Below the pieces are notes generated by a model. It was given only the letters and a program-made list of their open reading frames with translations. It made no database searches and was not told the DNA's origin. A DNA stretch of 64,000 bases. Source: Bacteroidales bacterium (GTDB taxonomy: Bacteria > Bacteroidota > Bacteroidia > Bacteroidales > UBA932). The DNA is taken from contig JAAYCA010000060.1 of NCBI GenBank assembly GCA_012744435.1, positions 4,067 to 68,066 of the forward strand, read 5' to 3'. The position numbers were made by a program, and so were the translations under genes. This document shows positions 1 through 62,138 of the stretch, piece by piece. Every line of letters starts with the position of its first letter. The stretch's first letter is position 1.

Positions 1-218
1 GCCGCGAGCTGGTTCGCCGGCTGCACCGGCCGCTCGTGAGCACGTCAGCCAACATCTCCGGCGAACCCACACCCGCCACTTTTGCGGAGATTCCGGAAGA
101 AATCAAGGCCGCCGTGGATTATGTCGTCCCGAAACCCTTCGGGAACGGCGCCACGGGCCGCTCTTCGCAGATAATCAAGCTCGGTCTGGACGGCGAGGTG
201 GAGATCCTCAGGCCGTAA
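1..218 (+). CDS. L-threonylcarbamoyladenylate synthase (TsaC/YrdC/Sua5 family), C-terminal fragment; 5' end lies outside the window
   Basis: The frame is open from the window edge. The product reads ..RPLVSTSANISGEPTPATFAEIPEEIK.., which is the YrdC-type TSAN.SG.P core. Stop TAA at 216-218. Confidence 0.7.
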   Translation, partial: RELVRRLHRPLVSTSANISGEPTPATFAEIPEEIKAAVDYVVPKPFGNGATGRSSQIIKLGLDGEVEILRP

Positions 219-1071
219 AAAGATACATGGCCGTGGCGGCGACGACCGCAGCGGTCTCGGTGCGCAGCCGGCTCTCTCCGAGCGACACCGGGATCCACCC
301 GGCACCCCGCGCCAGCGCCGCCTCCTCCGGACTGAAATCCCCCTCCGGCCCGATCAGGATGATAATCGGCCTCTCTTCCCCCGGCAGGCAGCTGTTGCCG
401 CAAACCTTCGCTTCGCTCATCCCTCCCACTGACTCCGTCAGCGGGCCCCTCCCATTTACGAGGCCATGGGTGGCCACGGGTTTGCCGGCAGCACTGCCTG
501 CCGGTTGGGAAGAGCCGTCCGGAATCTCCAGCTGGGATAGGGCAGCAGAAATCAAGGTCCGTTCGACATCGTCGAAGCAGTAACAAATGAGTTTCAGGGC
601 ATCGGCAGGAGCGGATGCGATGAAGTCGCGGACGCTCTGCGGCTCGGCGATCTGCGGGATGGCGGCCTTGAGCGACTGTTTGGCGGCGGAGAGAGCGATG
701 CGGCGCAGGCGGTCCGTCTTGAGAACCCTGCGCTCCGAGCGTTCGCCGATCACCGGCGCGATCACGTCCACGCCGATCTCCGTCGCTTTCTCCACGAACC
801 ATTCGTAGCGGTCGATGTTCTTGGTCGGGCAGACCGCCATCGTAAGCTGATAGGGATGCGCTCCGAAACCGGGCTCCTCCTGTATGATGCGCAACTCCGC
901 GCCCCGGGCGTCGGCCAGTTCCAGCACACAGCGGCAGAGCGTCCCGTGTCCGTCGATCACGGACACCTCATCGCCTGCACGGTGCCGCAGCACGCGGACG
1001 AGATGCGCGGACTCCTCCGGGTCCAGCCGGACCCGTCCGTCGCGGATATCTTCGGAATAAAACAGTTCCAT
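208..1071 (-). CDS. rsmE: 16S rRNA (uracil1498-N3)-methyltransferase RsmE, carrying an in-frame repeat insertion
   Basis: 287 aa. The N-terminus MELFYSEDI..RLDPEESAHLVRVLR and the C-terminal LIGPEGDFSPEE...ESRLRTETAA are typical RsmE/SPOUT blocks. An extra low-complexity segment is encoded by 381-504. Confidence 0.85.
   Translation of the reverse strand: MELFYSEDIRDGRVRLDPEESAHLVRVLRHRAGDEVSVIDGHGTLCRCVLELADARGAELRIIQEEPGFGAHPYQLTMAVCPTKNIDRYEWFVEKATEIGVDVIAPVIGERSERRVLKTDRLRRIALSAAKQSLKAAIPQIAEPQSVRDFIASAPADALKLICYCFDDVERTLISAALSQLEIPDGSSQPAGSAAGKPVATHGLVNGRGPLTESVGGMSEAKVCGNSCLPGEERPIIILIGPEGDFSPEEAALARGAGWIPVSLGESRLRTETAAVVAATAMYLFTA
381..504. repeat. MITE-like palindromic element, copy A, in frame inside rsmE
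   Basis: The terminal arms 381-406 (ccggcaggcagctgttgccgcaaacc) and 479-504 (ggtttgccggcagcactgcctgccgg) are inverted repeats. The core is nearly identical to the reverse complement of the core of 14281-14415. Confidence 0.7.
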
Positions 1072-3800: not shown

Positions 3801-3838
3801 AGCTATAACGCAAAACCGGTCCGAAAGGTTGGGAAAAA
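3801..3838 (-). promoter_or_regulatory. ECF-type promoter candidate (AAC-N17-CGT) upstream of the ECF sigma operon
   Basis: The minus strand reads TTTTTCCCAACCTTTCGGaccggtTTTGCGTTATAGC, about 55 nt upstream of the ATG at 3745. The same 13+12 nt motif with an identical 6-nt gap occurs at 13861-13898. Confidence 0.5.
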
Positions 3839-3848
3839 TTGAAAAAAA

Positions 3849-6316: not shown

Positions 6317-7326
6317 AGTTTCTTCTCCCAGGCCCAGGCTGCCTTCAGCGTGTCTGCGATGCTGCGTTCCGCCTTCCAGCCCAGCTCCTGCTCCGCAAGG
6401 GTCGGATCCGCCCAGATGGCCACTACGTCGCCCGGACGGCGCGGGGCGAATTTCCAGTTGAGCTTCACATCGTTGACCTGCTCGAAGGTGTTGATCAGCT
6501 CCAGCACGGACAGCGGCCGGCCGGTGCCGACATTGAATACCTCATACGACTCCTTCATCCGAGCGTCGCACATCCGGCCGACGGCACAGACGTGCGCCTT
6601 CGCCAGGTCCACGATGTCGATGAAATCGCGCAGGCACGTCCCGTCCGGGGTCGGATAGTCATTGCCGAACACCGACAGGCACGCACGCTTGCCAACCGCC
6701 GTCTGGGTGATGAAGGGCACGAGGTTGTTGGGCACACCGCGCGGCAGCTCGCCGATCAGTGCAGAAGGGTGTGCGCCGATGGGATTGAAATAGCGCAGCG
6801 CGATGCCGCGCATGCCGGGATAGGCGCGTACGCTGTCGCGCAGGATGTCCTCGCACACCGTCTTCGTATTGCCGTAGGGCGATTCCGCCGGCTGACGCGG
6901 GCTCCGCTCCGTCACAGGAAGATCGTCCGTCTGTCCATAGACCGTCGCCGACGAGGAGAAAAGCACATTGCAACCACCCTTCGCACGCGCCGCATCCAGG
7001 ATATTGACAAAAGAAACAAGATTGTTGCGATAGTACTTCAGCGGCTCCGAAACGGACTCGCCCACCGCCTTGAAGGCGGCGAAATGAATCACGGCATCGA
7101 TGGGATATTTTCCGAAAAGCGCATCGACGGCACCCTTGTCGCAGAAATCCATCCGGACCAGCGGCATCTCCCGTCCGAGGATGGCACAGACGCCCTTGTA
7201 GTTGGTGTCGTCGCAGTTGGAGAAATTATCGGCGATGACGACGTCGTAGCCGGCCTGCGCCAGCTCCACGGTCACATGGCTGCCGATGAATCCGGCACCG
7301 CCGGACACAAGTACGGTTTTTTTCAT
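6307..7326 (-). CDS. galE: UDP-glucose 4-epimerase
   Basis: Starts MKKTVLVSGGAGFIGSH (Rossmann GxxGxxG). It has a YxxxK motif (SPYGNTK) and a typical GalE C-terminus. The start is placed at the second Met of the track ORF. Confidence 0.9.
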   Translation of the reverse strand: MKKTVLVSGGAGFIGSHVTVELAQAGYDVVIADNFSNCDDTNYKGVCAILGREMPLVRMDFCDKGAVDALFGKYPIDAVIHFAAFKAVGESVSEPLKYYRNNLVSFVNILDAARAKGGCNVLFSSSATVYGQTDDLPVTERSPRQPAESPYGNTKTVCEDILRDSVRAYPGMRGIALRYFNPIGAHPSALIGELPRGVPNNLVPFITQTAVGKRACLSVFGNDYPTPDGTCLRDFIDIVDLAKAHVCAVGRMCDARMKESYEVFNVGTGRPLSVLELINTFEQVNDVKLNWKFAPRRPGDVVAIWADPTLAEQELGWKAERSIADTLKAAWAWEKKLCM

Positions 7327-10284: not shown

Positions 10285-11532
10285 TTATTCATCTCTCATG
10301 GCGTCCACGGGCTTGATGGCCATGGCGCGGGAAGCCGGGGCCAGGCCCGCGACCACGCCCAGCGCGGTCAGCAGCAGGGCGGCTGTCACGGCGAGCCAGA
10401 AACCGATCTGGAAGCTCGCCGGAGGATTGTCTCCGACCGTATTCACGATCGTCTCCGTCAGGCGCAGCAGCTGCACCGAGAAGACGATGCCGAAGGATCC
10501 GGCCACCAGGGTCAGGGCGATGCTCTCGAAAATGATCTGCGAGAGGATGTCGCGGGGAGTGGCGCCGATGGCGCGGCGGATGCCGATCTCGGTGGTGCGC
10601 TCCCGCACCGTGACCATCATGATATTGCTCACGCCGATGACACCTGCAAGGATCGTCCCCAGGCCGATCAGCAGGATCAGGAAGTTCACGCCCCGGAAGA
10701 GATTGTCCACCAGGGAGAAGAGCTGCTCGGTGTTGATGATCACGAGGGCTTGCTTGTCCGACGGGTCGAAAAGGTGCTGCCGGGCGAGGATCTGCCGTAT
10801 GCGCGGCTCCTGGTCCGACATCCTCACGCCCGACTTGCCGGTCACGCATACCAGGTCCACGACCGAACCGCGGTTGTAGATCTTCTGGGCCACCGGAAGC
10901 GGCACGCTCACGGTCTGGTCGGCGCGGCCGTTGATGCTGATGTTGCCGCTGCTGTAATCCACGCCCACGATCTGATAGAAGACGGGGCCCACCTGGATGA
11001 ATTCCCCGCAGGGATCGCCCCCGTCGGGGAACAGTTCCTTGTAGATGCGCCGGCCGATCACGCAGACCTTCCGCTCCTGCAAGATGTCGGTCTCATTGAG
11101 GTAGCGGCCGTATTTGATCCGGGGTTCCTCGATCTTGCCATAATCCGCCTGGATGCCCTTGACGCTGCCGCTGGCGGTGTTGGAGCCGCGAACGATCTGT
11201 CCGCCCCAGGAGGCGATGACCGGCGTGACGGTCTCCAGATCCGGCATCATCTGCCGCAGACGTTCGACGTCGGTGTAGGTAAGGTTCCAGTAGCGGCCTT
11301 CCTTGAAGCCTTTCCACGGTTCGCTGGTCTGCGAGGAGACCATGATGCAGGTGTTCGTCGCGAAACCCTCGAAGTTGGAGGTAATCATCTGCTTGAGCCC
11401 CTCTCCGCCGCCCATCATGAAGAGCAGCATGAACACGCCCCAGAACACGCCGAAGCCGGTGAGCAGGCTCCTGCTCTTGTTGCGGACCAGCGAATCCGCA
11501 ATCTCCCGGAAACTGTCTATATCGAGTCTCAT
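10285..11532 (-). CDS. ABC transporter permease, MacB/FtsX type (permease 2)
   Basis: 415 aa from MRLDIDSFREIADSLVRNKSRSLLTGFGVFWGVFML. The ATG overlaps the stop of the upstream permease (ATGA). A C-terminal FtsX motif is present (RERTTEIGIRRAIGATPRDIL). The 574-aa track ORF over-extends the N-terminus. Confidence 0.85.
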   Translation of the reverse strand: MRLDIDSFREIADSLVRNKSRSLLTGFGVFWGVFMLLFMMGGGEGLKQMITSNFEGFATNTCIMVSSQTSEPWKGFKEGRYWNLTYTDVERLRQMMPDLETVTPVIASWGGQIVRGSNTASGSVKGIQADYGKIEEPRIKYGRYLNETDILQERKVCVIGRRIYKELFPDGGDPCGEFIQVGPVFYQIVGVDYSSGNISINGRADQTVSVPLPVAQKIYNRGSVVDLVCVTGKSGVRMSDQEPRIRQILARQHLFDPSDKQALVIINTEQLFSLVDNLFRGVNFLILLIGLGTILAGVIGVSNIMMVTVRERTTEIGIRRAIGATPRDILSQIIFESIALTLVAGSFGIVFSVQLLRLTETIVNTVGDNPPASFQIGFWLAVTAALLLTALGVVAGLAPASRAMAIKPVDAMRDE

Positions 11533-12854
11533 TCTGCGCGGAGGGCTTCTATGGGTCTGACTTGAGCCGCCTTGCGGGCCGGGAACAAACCGGCCAGCGT
11601 GCCGGCGATGATGAGCACGAGCGTGGCTTCGACCGCCACGTCCAGTCCGACGGTGGGATTGACGAACATCGCGACCTGCGTGTCCATGATCGATACGGAG
11701 GATTGCCCCACCGTTTTGTCCAGGACCTGGCAGGCAATCATGCCGAGCAGCATCCCCACGTAGCCGAAGAAGGCCGTGATCGTGACGCTCTCCGCGAGGA
11801 TCAGTTTCATCACGCTCCAGGGATTGGCGCCGATCGCCTTGCGGATGCCGAATTCGTGCGTGCGCTCCTTGACGGTGATGAGCATGATGTTGGACACGCC
11901 CACGATGCCGCCGAGCAGGGTGAACAGGCCGATGACCCAGAGGGCCGTGCTGAGGATGTTGCGACCCTTGTTCATCTGGAGGTTCTGCATGAAGCGGTTC
12001 CAGATCCACACGGCGCGCGTGTCATCCGGTGCGGCGCGGTGCCGCAGGTTCACCGCCGTGCGGTACTGCTCCTCGAAGGCTTCATTCTCCTTCTCGGAAT
12101 TGAGACCATGGAAGGTGAAGGTGATGTCGTCCACGGTGCGCCCCTTCGCATAGATGGTCCGGATCGTCGTGTAGGGAGCATAGACGGTGTTGCTGTTGGT
12201 CGCGTCATTGGATTTGGCGATGCCGACCACCCGGTAGGAAATGCTGCCGATCTTGATATACTTACCGACCAGGTCCTGCACGTGGACCTTCTTGCCGGAG
12301 TTGGCATCCAGCTTCACGCCCGGGAAACGGGCGCCTGTGTCCCGGATATCATTCCCGAGCAGCGTCTCGGCCTGGTCCTGCGGCAGGACCACCACCTTGC
12401 GCCGGTCACGGATGTCCTTCTCGTTGAGGAAACGGCCGTAGAGGATCTCGATCTTGTCCATCTGCTGACGGGCGGGGAAATTCCCTTCGATGCTGCCGGA
12501 GAAGTATTTCCTGCCATAGCTGACCGTCTCGCTCGTGCTGACCGAGGAAATCACCTGGTCCACGTGGGCGGAGAAAAGATCGCTGCCCGTCAGGGCCACG
12601 TCACGGTCGTCCAGCTCGATGGCCCGGCCTTCCTCGAGGCCGTCGTAAGGCTTGGAGGTCCTGCCGCCGCCGACCTGCATCACATTGGTGGAGATGCCTT
12701 CTCCACCGATCAGGAAAGCGTTCATCAGGCCATTGCCCGCGCCCAAAAGGACGATGAGCATGAAGATGCCCCACGACACCGCAAAGCCGGTGAGGCAGGT
12801 GCGGAGCTTGTTGCGCCGGATGCTTTCCCAGATTTCAGTGAAGACGTCTCTCAT
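11529..12854 (-). CDS. ABC transporter permease, MacB/FtsX type (permease 1)
   Basis: 441 aa starting MRDVFTEIWESIRRNKLRTCLTGFAVSWGIFML. It has a periplasmic domain followed by an FtsX block (KERTHEFGIRKAIGANPWSVM). Confidence 0.9.
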   Translation of the reverse strand: MRDVFTEIWESIRRNKLRTCLTGFAVSWGIFMLIVLLGAGNGLMNAFLIGGEGISTNVMQVGGGRTSKPYDGLEEGRAIELDDRDVALTGSDLFSAHVDQVISSVSTSETVSYGRKYFSGSIEGNFPARQQMDKIEILYGRFLNEKDIRDRRKVVVLPQDQAETLLGNDIRDTGARFPGVKLDANSGKKVHVQDLVGKYIKIGSISYRVVGIAKSNDATNSNTVYAPYTTIRTIYAKGRTVDDITFTFHGLNSEKENEAFEEQYRTAVNLRHRAAPDDTRAVWIWNRFMQNLQMNKGRNILSTALWVIGLFTLLGGIVGVSNIMLITVKERTHEFGIRKAIGANPWSVMKLILAESVTITAFFGYVGMLLGMIACQVLDKTVGQSSVSIMDTQVAMFVNPTVGLDVAVEATLVLIIAGTLAGLFPARKAAQVRPIEALRAE

Positions 12855-13573
12855 TTCATGACGGTGCTGGTGCCGAACGCCGAAGCCCGGTGTTCGCGGT
12901 TCTCTTCGATCTGTCCGATGAGACCATCCTTGATATGGATGATCTTGTTGGTCGCATTGGCGACGCCGCTTTCATGGGTCACGACGATGATCGTCATGCC
13001 GTCCTCGCGGTTGAGCTGCTGGAGCAGCTCCATGATCTCGACCGAGGTCTTCGAGTCCAGCGCACCCGTCGGCTCGTCCGCCAGGACGATCTGCGGCCGG
13101 GTGATCAGCGCCCGGGCGATGGCCACCCGCTGCTTCTGGCCGCCCGACATCTCGTTCGGATAGTGCTTCGCCCAGTCGGCGAGCCCGAGCCGGTCGAGGT
13201 AATCCATCGCCATCTGGTGGCGCTTCCTGCGCGCGACTCCCTGATAGAAAAGGGGCAGTTCCACGTTCTCGACGGCCGTCTTGAAGCCGATGAGGTTGTA
13301 GGACTGGAAGATGAAGCCGATCATGCGGTTGCGGTAGTCGGCGGCCTGTTTCTCGGTAAGGTTCTTGATCAGCCGCCCGTCGATGCGGTACTCGCCGGTG
13401 TCGTAGTTGTCCAGGATGCCCAGGATATTGAGCAGCGTGGACTTTCCGGAACCGGAAGCTCCCATGATGGAGACGAATTCGCCCCGGTCGATTTCGAGGT
13501 TGATTCCCTTCAGCACGTGCAGGGGCTGGCCGTTGTTGTATGTCTTGTTGACGTCTTGGAGTTCGATGAGCAT
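12851..13573 (-). CDS. ABC transporter ATP-binding protein (MacB/LolD-like ATPase)
   Basis: Contains Walker A GASGSGKST, the signature MSGGQKQRVAIARA and Walker B IVLADEPT. The start is taken at MLIELQDVNKTY (13573). Confidence 0.9.
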   Translation of the reverse strand: MLIELQDVNKTYNNGQPLHVLKGINLEIDRGEFVSIMGASGSGKSTLLNILGILDNYDTGEYRIDGRLIKNLTEKQAADYRNRMIGFIFQSYNLIGFKTAVENVELPLFYQGVARRKRHQMAMDYLDRLGLADWAKHYPNEMSGGQKQRVAIARALITRPQIVLADEPTGALDSKTSVEIMELLQQLNREDGMTIIVVTHESGVANATNKIIHIKDGLIGQIEENREHRASAFGTSTVMK

Positions 13574-13860: not shown

Positions 13861-13898
13861 TGCTATAACGCAAACGCTCCCCGAAAGGTTGGAAAAAA
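13861..13898 (-). promoter_or_regulatory. Second ECF-type promoter motif, upstream of efflux operon 1
   Basis: The minus strand reads TTTTTTCCAACCTTTCGGggagcgTTTGCGTTATAGC. Apart from the 6-nt gap and one base in the 5' T-run it matches 3801-3838. It lies immediately downstream of a terminator hairpin and about 290 nt upstream of the ATPase ATG. Confidence 0.45.
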
Positions 13899-13928
13899 CA
13901 AAAAAGACAGCACCTTTCAGCACTGTCT
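13893..13928 (-). terminator. Intrinsic terminator after the small membrane protein gene
   Basis: The minus-strand RNA is gacagugc-ugaaag-gugcuguc (8 bp including 2 G-U pairs), followed by UUUUUGUUUUUU. Confidence 0.55.
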
Positions 13929-14140: not shown

Positions 14141-14887
14141 TTAAAGGTTTGGTTTTCTTGAGAACTCACAGCCGCACCAGGTCTGGTTGTAGAACCCCTG
14201 CTCCCGGATCACCTCGTTCCTCCGCTCCTGCAGCCCGCCTTTCCGCCAGTTCTGTGGCCAAAAGAGTACTGCCGTGGTCACTGCCCGGGGGCTGGTATTC
14301 AAGTCGGAAAAACCGTGGCCGCCCGTGGCCTCGTGAACGGGGGGGACCCGCTGCGAAGCAGTGGGGGGGATGAGCGAAGCGAAGTTTTGCCGACCTGCAA
14401 TACCAGCCCCGGCAGAAAAGCAGCCGGACGTTTCAGGAGGCAGTTCGCCGCTCCTGCTGCAGGCGATCTCCCCGGCGGCATTGACCTGGTCGAGATCCTT
14501 CCAGCGGGAAGAGGCGAGGGTGGTGGCGAGGACCGGAAGGCCGCGGGCCGCGGCATATCGGGCGGCGCGGCCGAGCCGGAAACGGAAACAGGCCGCGCAG
14601 CGGCCGCCGCGCTCGGGCTCGTCCTCCAGTCCGCGGACCGCATCCAGCCAGGCGTCGTGGTCGTATTCGTCTGCCACGAGCTCGACGCCCATCACCCCGG
14701 CATAGCGCCGCAGCTCCGCCAGGCGCAGGTCATACTCCGCGCGCGGAGTGATATTGGAATTGCTGAAGAACACCACCGGCCGGATCCCATTGTCCCGCAG
14801 GCATTCCAGGATGGCCCCGGAACATGGCGCGCAGCAGGCGTGGAGCAAGATTTCCCGGGCCCCGCCCGGTGTTTCGACCTTCAGCAT
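14141..14887 (-). CDS. queH: Epoxyqueuosine reductase QueH (DUF208), carrying an in-frame repeat insertion
   Basis: 248 aa with LLHACCAPCSG near the N-terminus, RCAACFRFRL, and a C-terminal FYNQTWCGCEFS (the conserved Cys-rich QueH blocks). An extra segment is encoded by 14281-14415. Confidence 0.85.
   Translation of the reverse strand: MLKVETPGGAREILLHACCAPCSGAILECLRDNGIRPVVFFSNSNITPRAEYDLRLAELRRYAGVMGVELVADEYDHDAWLDAVRGLEDEPERGGRCAACFRFRLGRAARYAAARGLPVLATTLASSRWKDLDQVNAAGEIACSRSGELPPETSGCFSAGAGIAGRQNFASLIPPTASQRVPPVHEATGGHGFSDLNTSPRAVTTAVLFWPQNWRKGGLQERRNEVIREQGFYNQTWCGCEFSRKPNL
14281..14415. repeat. MITE-like palindromic element, copy B, in frame inside queH
   Basis: 135 bp (45 codons). 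The arms 14281-14313 (ctgcccgggggctggtattcaagtcggaaaaac) and 14384-14415 (gttttgccgacctgcaataccagccccggcag) are inverted repeats. The core ccgtggccgcccgtggcctcgtgaacgggggggacccgctgcgaagcagtgggggggatgagcgaagcgaag matches the reverse complement of copy A. Confidence 0.7.
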
Positions 14888-15900: not shown

Positions 15901-15984
15901 GCGGCAGTGGTGAAATGGTAGACACGCTACTTTGAGGGGGTAGTGGGCGTTTGGCCTGTGTGAGTTCGAGTCTCACCTGCCGCA
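15901..15984 (+). tRNA. tRNA-Leu (anticodon GAG), type II with long variable arm
   Basis: Folded by hand. Acceptor GCGGCAG/CTGCCGC, D arm GTG..CAC, anticodon stem CTACT/GGTAG with loop TTGAGGG (GAG), long variable arm, T arm GTGAG-TTCGAGT-CTCAC, discriminator A. A TAttTTTG -7 box lies about 20 nt upstream. Confidence 0.9.
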
Positions 15985-61368: not shown

Positions 61369-62049
<681 letters not shown>

Positions 62050-62051
62050 GT

Positions 62052-62138
62052 GTTCCCTCCGGTCCATCTTCTGGACCGGAGGGAACGAAAACAGGGGTAA
62101 AATGCTCCTTCCGGTCCATCCGTTGGACCGGAGGAAAC
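62052..62138 (+). repeat. Two tandem related hairpins in the intra-operon spacer
   Basis: Hairpin 1 is gttccctccggtcca-tcttc-tggaccggagggaac (62052-62086, a perfect 15-bp stem). Hairpin 2 is ..tccggtcca-tccgt-tggaccgga.. (about 62105-62138, a 9-bp perfect core plus an imperfect extension). They share the core TCCGGTCCA/TGGACCGGA. Confidence 0.6.

Follow-up and report, generated by a model that had tools for sequence, protein, structure and literature searches.

We analyzed a 64,000-nucleotide (nt) stretch of a Bacteroidales bacterium genome (GenBank assembly GCA_012744435.1, contig JAAYCA010000060.1, positions 4,067 to 68,066; this whole stretch is referred to here as the window), in which queH carries an in-frame, 135-nt palindromic insertion (copy B) and rsmE carries a second copy of the same element (copy A). 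The two copies belong to a dispersed family of repeats in which a copied unit of about 100 to 140 nt consists of a 74-nt core between two complementary arms (P1). The comparisons described below directly support the family, the fold of its core, its in-frame residence in genes, its flips, its deletions, and the constraint on it. On balance, and with moderate confidence, we propose that these repeats are non-autonomous and hairpin-armed and that they have spread from chromosome to chromosome position within one rumen and gut clade of Bacteroidales, with the fold as their working part and with a factor acting in trans. The family is apparently undescribed so far. Full-text literature on palindromic or structured repeats of Bacteroidales contained no description of the element, and Rfam 15 gave no match at gathering score across the window and none at E ≤ 10 on copy B; a long variant of the element (L069; L-numbers denote genomic loci and P-numbers denote proteins compared in the analysis) gave only noise in Rfam.

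The insertion in queH and the second copy in rsmE

The host gene queH (14141 to 14887, minus strand) is an intact open reading frame (ORF) of 248 amino acids (aa). Its product gave two separate Pfam QueH matches, with residues 13 to 144 corresponding to positions 1 to 132 of the 175-position profile, and the 135-bp, 45-codon insertion that a first-pass annotation of this DNA had placed between recognizable QueH blocks was found between these two stretches, at 14281 to 14415. In alignments with the solved QueH structures 7lc5 and 9dco, query residue 140 corresponded to chain residue 130 and query residue 207 to chain residue 138; a QueH loop of about 7 residues is therefore expanded to 66 residues. 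In an AlphaFold model, residues 148 to 202 had a predicted local distance difference test (pLDDT) score of <50 and no secondary structure, and the insert region is predicted to be disordered. The segment is not a universal part of QueH, a possibility that the annotation had raised, given that many QueH orthologues were without it.

The folding strand of copy B is the plus strand, antisense to queH. A covariance model built from 73 distinct copies matched it at 14299 to 14398 (98.9 bits; E = 8.5e-24), and its minimum-energy fold (−72.1 kcal/mol; z = −4.2; 0 of 200 shuffles as good) contained about 29 arm-stem pairs, in line with the earlier claim that its arms pair with each other. On the plus strand, the 5′ arm of P1 (14281 to 14313) pairs with the 3′ arm (14384 to 14415), and the outer part of the 5′ arm, at about 14288 to 14299 (GGGGCTGGTATT), is a perfect inverted repeat. 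Between the arms lie helix a (14314 to 14333; CGTGGCC / GGCCTCG, i.e., seven pairs including one U.U, with the 6-nt loop GCCCGT), pseudoknot helix b (14322 to 14341), in which CCCGT of this loop (14322 to 14326) pairs with ACGGG (14337 to 14341), helix c (14347 to 14365; CCCGCTGC-GAA-GCAGTGGG), a hairpin whose sequence and length vary and which has a recurrent G.U pair and a c-GNA-g triloop, and helix d (14371 to 14383; TGAGC-GAA-GCGAA, with a U-A pair, tandem G.A pairs, a G-C pair, and a C-G pair), which is contained in an invariant 18-mer (14367 to 14384).

Abutting copy B at 14417 to 14445 (plus strand) is a sequence that encodes ELPPETSGC of QueH and that was assigned, by alignment to three copies of a second form of the element (variant 2; L010, L061, and L111), to the 3′ half of helix d and the 3′ arm. 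By this alignment, the sequence is the 3′-terminal remnant of a variant-2 element that copy B has truncated, and the QueH loop therefore holds two successive or nested insertions. Counting this remnant, the extra QueH sequence exceeds 45 codons.

Copy A (373 to 514; folding strand minus, sense with its host) lies in rsmE (208 to 1071, minus strand; source name, NLZ20029.1), the ORF for the 16S rRNA U1498 methyltransferase, whose orthologues in L063 and L088 carry Pfam Methyltrans_RNA. Its arms extend to about 38 nt, and the covariance model matched it at 393 to 493 (92.2 bits; E = 5.2e-22). The plus-strand core of copy B (14313 to 14384) was identical to the reverse complement of the rsmE copy at 64 of 72 positions, as the annotation had proposed. 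Since both hosts are on the minus strand and the cores are mutually reverse-complementary, the orientation relative to the host differs between the two copies; translations confirmed that queH reads the FASLIPPT frame and rsmE the GMSEAK frame and that both are open. The inverted orientation is thus real, but it need not mean two types of insertion, since the element flips in place (see below). The arms of the two copies were only about 60% alike, i.e., they share little sequence, as claimed. Both copies fold as a long stem with a structured center (z-scores, −4.2 to −6.1, with no shuffle folding as well). The 18-mer common to them (GGGATGAGCGAAGCGAAG) occurred exactly twice in the window (0.16 occurrences expected), and beyond these two copies the covariance model gave no window match above 13.5 bits.

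Fold of the core and constraint on it

On the strand reading GAUGAGCGAAGCGAAG, the 5′ arm is followed by helix a, UGA, NNGGG, AGGGG, hairpin c, AGGGA, hairpin d, and the 3′ arm. In the consensus, helix a is CGUGGCC / GGCCACG with a 6-nt loop (RCCCNN), the NNGGG after UGA pairs with this loop to form pseudoknot b, and hairpin c is CCC...GGG, free in length and sequence. Across the 73 copies, 76% of the cells of P1 were paired, with both-side changes in 14 of 15 pairs, and 89% of those of helix a, with both-side changes in 6 of 7 pairs. Pseudoknot b was 99.5% paired; its two variable pairs were GC in 57 copies, AU in 14, and UA in 2, and UA in 56 and CG in 17, respectively, and neither was ever unpaired. 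Helix c was 78% paired, a figure depressed by a one-column register shift in one subfamily, and the pair closing helix c covaried between G.A (53 copies) and A.G (7 copies). Overall, double changes were present in 28 of 35 pairs, and the covariation score was 0.431, compared with 0.173 for shuffles (0 of 500 reached the observed value) and 0.10 to 0.15 for slid partners.

Helix d is hidden in the invariant 18-mer, where it reads UGAGC-GAA-GCGAA (U-A, two sheared-type G.A, G-C, and C-G). Variant-2 copies have in its place GUCGC-GAA-GCGAC, GUCCGGC-GCA-GCCGGAC, GUCCGAC-GCA-GUCGGAC, GUCC-GAA-GGAC, or GUCGCGCC-UU-GGCGCGAC. Of the two copies in the cultured isolate Bacteroidales bacterium WCE2004, the one in queH (UGAGCGC-GGA-GCGCGAA) has gained two complementary pairs, and the intergenic one (UGAAGC-GAA-GCGGAA) has gained one base per side. 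It is these complementary variant-2 hairpins and compensated extensions that reveal helix d. The annotation had described the core as a similar stretch; the similarity holds, and the compensatory changes found in all of the helices point to more than that, namely, a four-way junction (P1, a, c, and d) plus pseudoknot b, formed on one strand.

Some copies are longer. In L052 (1321 to 1469), L069 (4237 to 4391), and L099 (5347 to 5498), helix a is followed by an additional domain of about 50 nt before the 3′ strand of pseudoknot b is reached, and L079 (3491 to 3632) was also listed among these long variants; L047 (5294 to 5437) has a much enlarged hairpin c.

On the folding strand, 146 G.U wobbles were counted vs 90 A.C, and one position of helix c was GU in 30 copies and AU in 24. 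The G.U excess and this recurrent G.U pair indicate that one specific strand folds; the G.U bias is weaker than that of typical RNA families. Most loops of helices c and d had one of two forms, the c-GNA-g triloop (26 of 73 copies in helix c) or c-GNNA-g, the latter with a pyrimidine in the third position. Loops of this kind belong to the repertoire of very stable DNA mini-hairpins, e.g., d(GCGAAGC), whereas RNA typically uses GNRA and UNCG loops. The core may thus fold either as RNA, to which the pseudoknot, the conserved G.U, and the tandem G.A pairs point, or as single-stranded DNA (ssDNA), to which the c-GNA-g and c-GNNA-g loops, the non-negligible A.C count, and an orientation that is random with respect to genes and terminators point. 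When the hammerhead, hepatitis delta virus (HDV)-like, twister, and pistol ribozymes, tRNA-like structures, and retron msr/msd were mapped by hand onto the fold, their topologies disagreed with it. A hammerhead core in the string GAUGA...GAA was also rejected, because this string is a hairpin with tandem G.A pairs and variant 2 has Watson-Crick pairs there.

In 12 of 12 orthologous pairs, the core was better conserved than the flanks, which are mostly coding; mean identity was 0.885 for the core and 0.762 for the flanks, and the arms at orthologous sites (0.775) behaved like the flanks. The queH core was identical at 74 of 74 positions in all pairs of four lineages, the flipped one included, with flanks that were 80 to 91% identical, and it was identical again in a fifth contig. 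Intragenomic homogenization is not the explanation, since 8 of the 72 positions are mismatched between the window's own two cores; neither is protein-level selection, since flipped alleles encode unrelated peptides. These comparisons argue that the core sequence and fold are under purifying selection at resident loci, whatever the orientation or frame, and that the conserved part is the core and not the arms. If so, the element is not inert junk. The annotation had suggested selection for a long stem or, alternatively, subfamilies. Pairing was indeed preserved in the arms, which is the meaning of the 14 of 15 arm pairs changed on both sides, and subfamilies do exist; the arms are not, as far as these comparisons indicate, the strongly selected part.

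Distribution, host genes, and rearrangements

A scan for the 18-mer that covered one genome per species gave at least 116 loci, of which at least about 85 carried the whole element; full copies were present in at least 39 Bacteroidales genomes among the matches listed. The carriers were metagenome-assembled genomes (MAGs) from rumen and gut (i.e., RUG and RGIG bins, Muribaculaceae, Prevotellaceae, Cryptobacteroides, and Cacconaster), together with the isolate WCE2004 (GCA_900167895.1), whose 2 copies, within 20.7 kb, are at about 68986 to 69087 and 72462 to 72564 of FUZR01000003.1. Matches to the 18-mer in other phyla were discarded as chance matches because the rest of the core was missing. 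The covariance model, with E-values of about 1e-22 to 1e-25, found 102 copies in 92 loci, about 10 of them without the exact 18-mer. The density, estimated from non-index copies only, was about 1 copy per 60 kb. No copies were found in plasmid or phage collections; a lone 18-mer match in IMG/VR was a chance match in a Glu-rich ORF. The doubt expressed in the annotation, that only two copies might exist and that their similarity might be that of GC-rich low-complexity sequence, is removed by these numbers, and the element is a real, dispersed one.

Of 67 evaluable copies, 18 lay in ORFs that ran unbroken for 110 codons or more to either side of the element, and 45 were intergenic. There were no convincing broken genes among them; the few non-continuous cases in long ORFs proved spurious. 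Hosts with Pfam domains on both sides of the element were RecG, TilS, FolC, AroE-AroK, ATP synthase gamma, TldD, DnaX, PrmC, RsmA, TrmB, YgiQ, RsmE, an epimerase, a ferredoxin, and an FAD protein. Peptide searches, which serve as examples only and not as counts (3 proteins word-indexed; 14 among representatives, two of them false), added TrmH/RlmB-like, RlmI-like, RsmB/F, and XerC/D-like hosts, and recurrent peptides such as FASLIPPTASQRVPPVHEATGGHGF were seen in several proteins. Genic copies were evenly divided between sense (16) and antisense (16) orientations, and five reading frames were used; the sixth is undetectable here because of the TGA in the 18-mer, the copies having been found in open ORFs. 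Orientation with respect to terminators was also even (14 vs 15), which disposed of a 3′ untranslated region (UTR) element upstream of terminators, as had been hinted at by four Muribaculaceae copies.

The hosts in the window are both RNA-modification enzymes, which the annotation had allowed might be a coincidence. It does not look so: 8 of 22 host families (QueH, RsmE, TilS, RsmA, TrmB, TrmH-like, RlmI-like, and RsmB/F; loci L016/L038, L063/L088, L074, and L111 and proteins P0131 to P0140) have this role, well beyond what such families make up of a genome. The enrichment for tRNA/rRNA-modification hosts looks like a real one in a sample that is small and non-random, and its cause could be tolerance, modular linkers, or low expression. 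Protein P0136 (148 aa) has a TrmH-like N terminus and a QueH C terminus joined at the element, i.e., a chimeric call from a repeat-induced metagenome misassembly.

Inversion in place was seen in both host genes of the window. In the queH allele of L117 (P0005), the outer arms are as in the window (CTGCCGGGGCTGGTATT ... AATACCAGCCCCCGGG), and the inner arms and core are reverse-complemented, so that its QueH reads ..AGIQVGRTVAARGLVNGGDPLRSSGGDERSEV..NTSPR where the window QueH reads ..AGIAGRQNFASLIPP..NTSPR. The breakpoint lies inside a perfect outer repeat of 12 to 17 bp, within the copy B outer inverted repeat at about 14288 to 14299 described above. In rsmE, L063 has the inner arms of window copy A, with their asymmetries, with the entire unit turned around with respect to the gene. 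Three of the 12 orthologous pairs, which were found by flank similarity alone, were flipped, in tilS and aroE-aroK. Since the crossovers lie in locus-specific arms, we ascribe the flips to the inverted repeats (recombination or template switching) rather than to a dedicated invertase. Both window genes stayed open after an in silico flip. The exact in silico-flipped QueH and RsmE proteins were not on record, and a metagenome junction scan returned 2 contigs only, both in the window orientation; neither result carries weight for or against flipping within a strain. No single strain background was seen to have both orientations.

Two strains of the WCE2004 species offered a closer comparison. 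L127 (WCE2004) and L128/L129 were 98 to 99% identical over 3 kb on each side of the queH insert. Their inserts had opposite orientations and were unlike in hairpins c and d, and the neighboring queH sequence had diverged over about 35 nt; nearly all other differences were elsewhere and sparse. The difference between L127 and L128 is thus that of a diverged allele and not of a clean flip. An intergenic copy of this species, 3.4 kb from the queH insert, was co-oriented, with one loop base differing.

Among 120 QueH homologues whose N-terminal parts were 85 to 92% identical, the loop was occupied by inserts of the main family (both orientations and two sense frames) and of variant 2 (again both orientations), as well as by incomplete copies and short leftovers. 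Two pairs of filled and empty alleles were available as DNA, namely, P0105 vs P0064 (97.3% identical; length difference, 102 nt) and P0017 vs P0028 (93.7%; 99 nt), and the empty alleles retained exactly one arm. Because the retained arm matches the variant-2 arm consensus, the empty alleles are best seen as deletion derivatives; the short direct repeats at these pairs, which might otherwise suggest target-site duplication, fit deletion just as well. L030 and L021 also had partial copies that were nested or in tandem. The 5′ half of the element is tandemly or partially duplicated in FolC (L021, 4896 to 6521) and just upstream of a full copy (L030, about 6740 to 6810), which suggests recombination or insertion between elements.

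The arms are 15 to 38 nt long, up to 40 nt, and sometimes >55 nt, and their sequences are unique to each locus; recurring arm sequence was limited to the inner 5 to 10 nt, within subfamilies, and no terminal inverted repeats were common to all copies. In one Muribaculaceae genome, paralogues share arms of about 25 nt that differ by paired changes, and their similarity ends beyond the arms, with no target-site duplication at the ends. In the variant-2 family, helices a, b, and c are retained and a Watson-Crick hairpin (GUC...GAC) replaces the 18-mer; its arms are conserved across unrelated genes. Its copies are L010:3158-3256(+), L061:847-951(+), L111:4166-4261(+), L042:7459-7551(−), L083:3506-3598(−), L050:2255-2355(−), L123, and L125; their in-frame peptides recur as ATLGIVRGGTASEAQRWGPKDVSGGELP or AGPLPS..GPLPLT.PRVARFPEA. 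Given paralogues that share arms and variant-2 arms that are constant at unrelated loci, we take the arms to be part of the copied unit. An origin of the arms by copying of the target (inverted target duplication) was rejected because the arms of the empty alleles match the variant-2 consensus at unrelated loci, although the retention of one arm in those alleles had made it attractive. Re-insertion of the core alone into fixed landing-pad hairpins does not fit the flips in rsmE and queH, in which the asymmetries of the arms move together with the core, and was likewise rejected. Correction of quasipalindromes by template switching could, we infer, keep the arms paired without selection.

Complementary arms of >55 nt run up to the contig start in L085 (1 to 260) and L058 (1 to 100), where the palindrome has either truly grown or been produced by a fold-back error of assembly at the contig end. 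The window also contains two plain intergenic hairpins, at 62048 to 62086 (GTTCCCTCCGGTCC-ATCTTCT-GGACCGGAGGGAAC) and 62100 to 62138 (a copy with 82% similarity); their stems resemble the CTCCGG..CCGGAG arm subfamily, without a core.

Other features of the window concern the surroundings of queH and unrelated repeats. A tRNA gene (15901 to 15984, plus strand; 51.5 bits, Rfam) lies between a GerE/hemerythrin regulator upstream of queH and feoB. The order GerE regulator, queH, and a 58-aa ORF, with feoB and macB/ABC transporter genes flanking, is kept in L118, L121, L127, and L128. A 44-nt direct repeat with 80% identity (GCTATAACGCAAA..CCGAAAGGTTGG.AAAAA) occupies two AT-rich intergenic regions (3802 to 3845 and 13862 to 13905), one of them just downstream of the queH cluster, and may be a shared regulatory or terminator-proximal motif. 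Two longer, imperfect repeats, one inverted (13394 to 13497 vs 61445 to 61548; 78%) and one direct (10555 to 10668 vs 11820 to 11933; 71%), probably correspond to paralogous ABC transporter ATPase/permease genes and not to mobile DNA.

Proposed explanation, alternatives, and comparison with known systems

In the explanation that we favor, the fold would form in a single-stranded state, as a transcript or as ssDNA, and would be the working part of the element. A trans-acting factor encoded away from the element would recognize it and copy and/or retain the element. We infer mobility via such a folded single-stranded intermediate, the trans-acting partner, and the upkeep of the arms by template switching. 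Fresh copies would land in genes and intergenic DNA alike; those in genes would survive only in permissive surface loops and in stop-free frames, where they would be translated as a disordered loop of 40 to 50 aa whose peptide is incidental. Recombination or template switching in the outer arms would then invert the unit in place, which accounts for the opposite orientations. Mismatches between the inverted-repeat arms would be compensated, units would be lost by deletion to leave solo arms, and elements would nest into one another.

Several points weigh against this explanation. No unambiguous virgin empty site was found, and the insertions are deduced from paralogues and nesting. Neither target-site duplications nor conserved termini were seen. 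Genes between paired copies 4.25 kb apart (L047 and L028) were ordinary, with no transposase and no partner enzyme among the genes between these two copy pairs. The census is skewed to copies with the exact 18-mer, and the evidence for RNA vs ssDNA can be read either way. Purifying selection on resident copies is unexpected for a purely selfish repeat and points to a host-level role or another retention mechanism.

We also tentatively entertain a bolder reading, which we think less likely than not: the 74-nt core might be a new class of functional structured nucleic acid, RNA or ssDNA, kept by selection at dozens of loci per genome, also within the coding regions of housekeeping genes, either catalytic or a handle for some machinery, with the preference for tRNA/rRNA-modification hosts as a functional link and not mere tolerance.

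The main rival to a mobile repeat is a family of structured noncoding RNAs that serve the host by binding protein or by catalysis, with the core acting as RNA and P1 serving in processing or stability. The complex covarying fold, with its pseudoknot, conserved G.U, G.A/A.G covariation, and tandem G.A pairs, is what such a family would have, as are the optional extra domains at fixed points (L052, L069, and L099), the purifying selection on resident copies, and the strand bias of the wobble pairs. However, the random orientation with respect to genes (16/16) and terminators (14/15) means that half of the copies would need antisense transcription, and antisense copies are equally conserved. Sense copies reside inside the essential genes dnaX and tilS, the loop repertoire is atypical for RNA, and Rfam holds no relative. 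Conservation that is independent of orientation argues against a simple RNA gene, and constraint in situ argues against mere junk; neither is decisive, and we consider the host-serving RNA unlikely.

The comparison of core and flanks already contradicts the idea of a neutral, decaying selfish palindrome, i.e., a plain miniature inverted-repeat transposable element (MITE) or a Rickettsia palindromic element (RPE)-like repeat with no function after insertion, in which similarity would reflect recent spread only. The many unrelated genes with in-frame copies, as for RPEs (PMC10969869), the frequent deletion remnants and partial copies, and the lack of an adjacent ORF would all suit it. We nevertheless find it improbable, because core identity exceeded that of the coding flanks in 12 of 12 pairs, because the core is identical in queH lineages with 9 to 20% flank divergence while the adjacent arms diverge, and because covariation extends over four helices and the pseudoknot.

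A programmed intragenic inverton, in which a dedicated invertase would switch protein isoforms or expression (phase variation), is another reading to which we assign little weight. In its favor, inverted repeats bound the segment, queH, rsmE, tilS, and aroE-aroK each have it in either orientation at one site, the ORF is open in both, and intragenic invertons are known in Bacteroides (10.1101/2023.03.11.532203). Against it, the breakpoints lie in locus-specific outer arms with no shared recognition sequence, no strain background was seen to have both orientations, and the conspecific pair L127/L128 differs by a diverged allele and not by a clean flip; most copies are, moreover, intergenic, and the inserted peptides are predicted to be disordered loops.

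Two further readings are very improbable. In an RNA-level mini-intron or self-excising element, the host proteins would never contain the insert; the closing stem of the structured core does join both junctions, and the hosts are conserved enzymes, but genic copies lie antisense to their hosts as often as sense, 18 continuous ORFs stand against 0 convincing broken genes, and Rfam gave no group I or II similarity. A protein-level module, in which selection would keep the inserted peptide, could claim the in-frame residence and the peptides that recur in several proteins; it is effectively refuted by the unrelated peptides that an identical core encodes in flipped alleles, and the use of five frames, the intergenic position of most copies, and the predicted disorder of the region count against it as well. 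Chance GC-rich similarity or an assembly artefact, despite the very long palindromes at some MAG contig ends (L085 and L058) and the chimeric P0136, is rejected on the basis of E-values of about 1e-22 to 1e-25 and of dozens of independent assemblies together with an isolate genome.

If the repeat family is confirmed, selfish palindromes inside protein genes would extend from Rickettsia to an abundant gut and rumen lineage. A core that is kept intact at resident loci regardless of frame or orientation is a candidate new structured RNA or ssDNA motif. Arm-mediated flipping, solo-arm deletion, and nesting make the QueH loop a mosaic that is hypervariable even where strains share about 99% identity elsewhere. 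The element causes misassemblies of MAGs and chimeric gene calls (P0136), inflates apparent protein diversity, and could pass for a programmed inverton. The cultured carrier, WCE2004, makes it directly testable by experiment.

Among known systems, the attC sites of integrons are imperfect palindromes that conserve the pairing of their arms and not the arm sequence, and one of their strands is active as folded ssDNA. The element resembles them in keeping pairing over arm sequence and in having one folding strand. However, attC sites have a variable center and conserved R/L boxes and lie in arrays beside an integrase, whereas the center is conserved here and the copies are dispersed, with no arrays seen. 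Small ribozymes (hammerhead, twister, pistol, hatchet, and HDV-like) also combine a compact conserved pseudoknot or junction core with stems of free sequence in many contexts and in many copies per genome; the element differs from them in matching no Rfam model even at E ≤ 10. REP/REPIN sequences are likewise short, high-copy-number chromosomal hairpin repeats that persist at orthologous positions, and a single-copy enzyme acting in trans (RAYT) presumably processes them in the form of single-stranded hairpins. REPINs have conserved arms and a variable loop, the opposite of the arrangement here, REPs are extragenic whereas this element is also found inside ORFs, and no RAYT-like gene was present among the genes between the two copy pairs.

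MITEs (Correia, ERIC, BOX, and RUP) are similar in being small and non-autonomous, with inverted repeats and long hairpins, and they are occasionally fused in frame to genes (PMC10969869). They have conserved terminal repeats that match a parent insertion sequence, as well as target-site duplications, neither of which was seen here. In the intragenic invertons of Bacteroides, a gene segment flanked by inverted repeats occurs in both orientations with the frame open, and the protein is recoded (10.1101/2023.03.11.532203). The segment described here, flanked by inverted repeats, is also found in both orientations, between lineages. Known invertons are single-locus switches in mixed populations, in contrast to a dispersed family with flips between lineages only and with breakpoints in non-conserved arms.

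The closest likeness in gene residence is to RPEs, which lie in frame in unrelated protein genes, are tolerated as an extra surface peptide, and occur in intergenic DNA as well (PMC10969869). Both are palindromic repeats of 100 to 150 nt without their own ORF, present in many copies and in frame in unrelated genes. RPEs sit in Rickettsia, whereas this element sits in Bacteroidales; taxon and GC content make sequence homology to RPE-1 to RPE-10 unlikely. Each RPE family has a conserved sequence and one conserved peptide, whereas five frames and both orientations are used here. The element further differs in its locus-specific arms around a conserved center, in the covarying junction and pseudoknot that are constrained in situ, and in its documented inversion in place. 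Because the features that define MITEs, REPINs, attC sites, known ribozymes, introns, and programmed invertons do not fit the element, we file it as a structured variant of the palindromic repeats.

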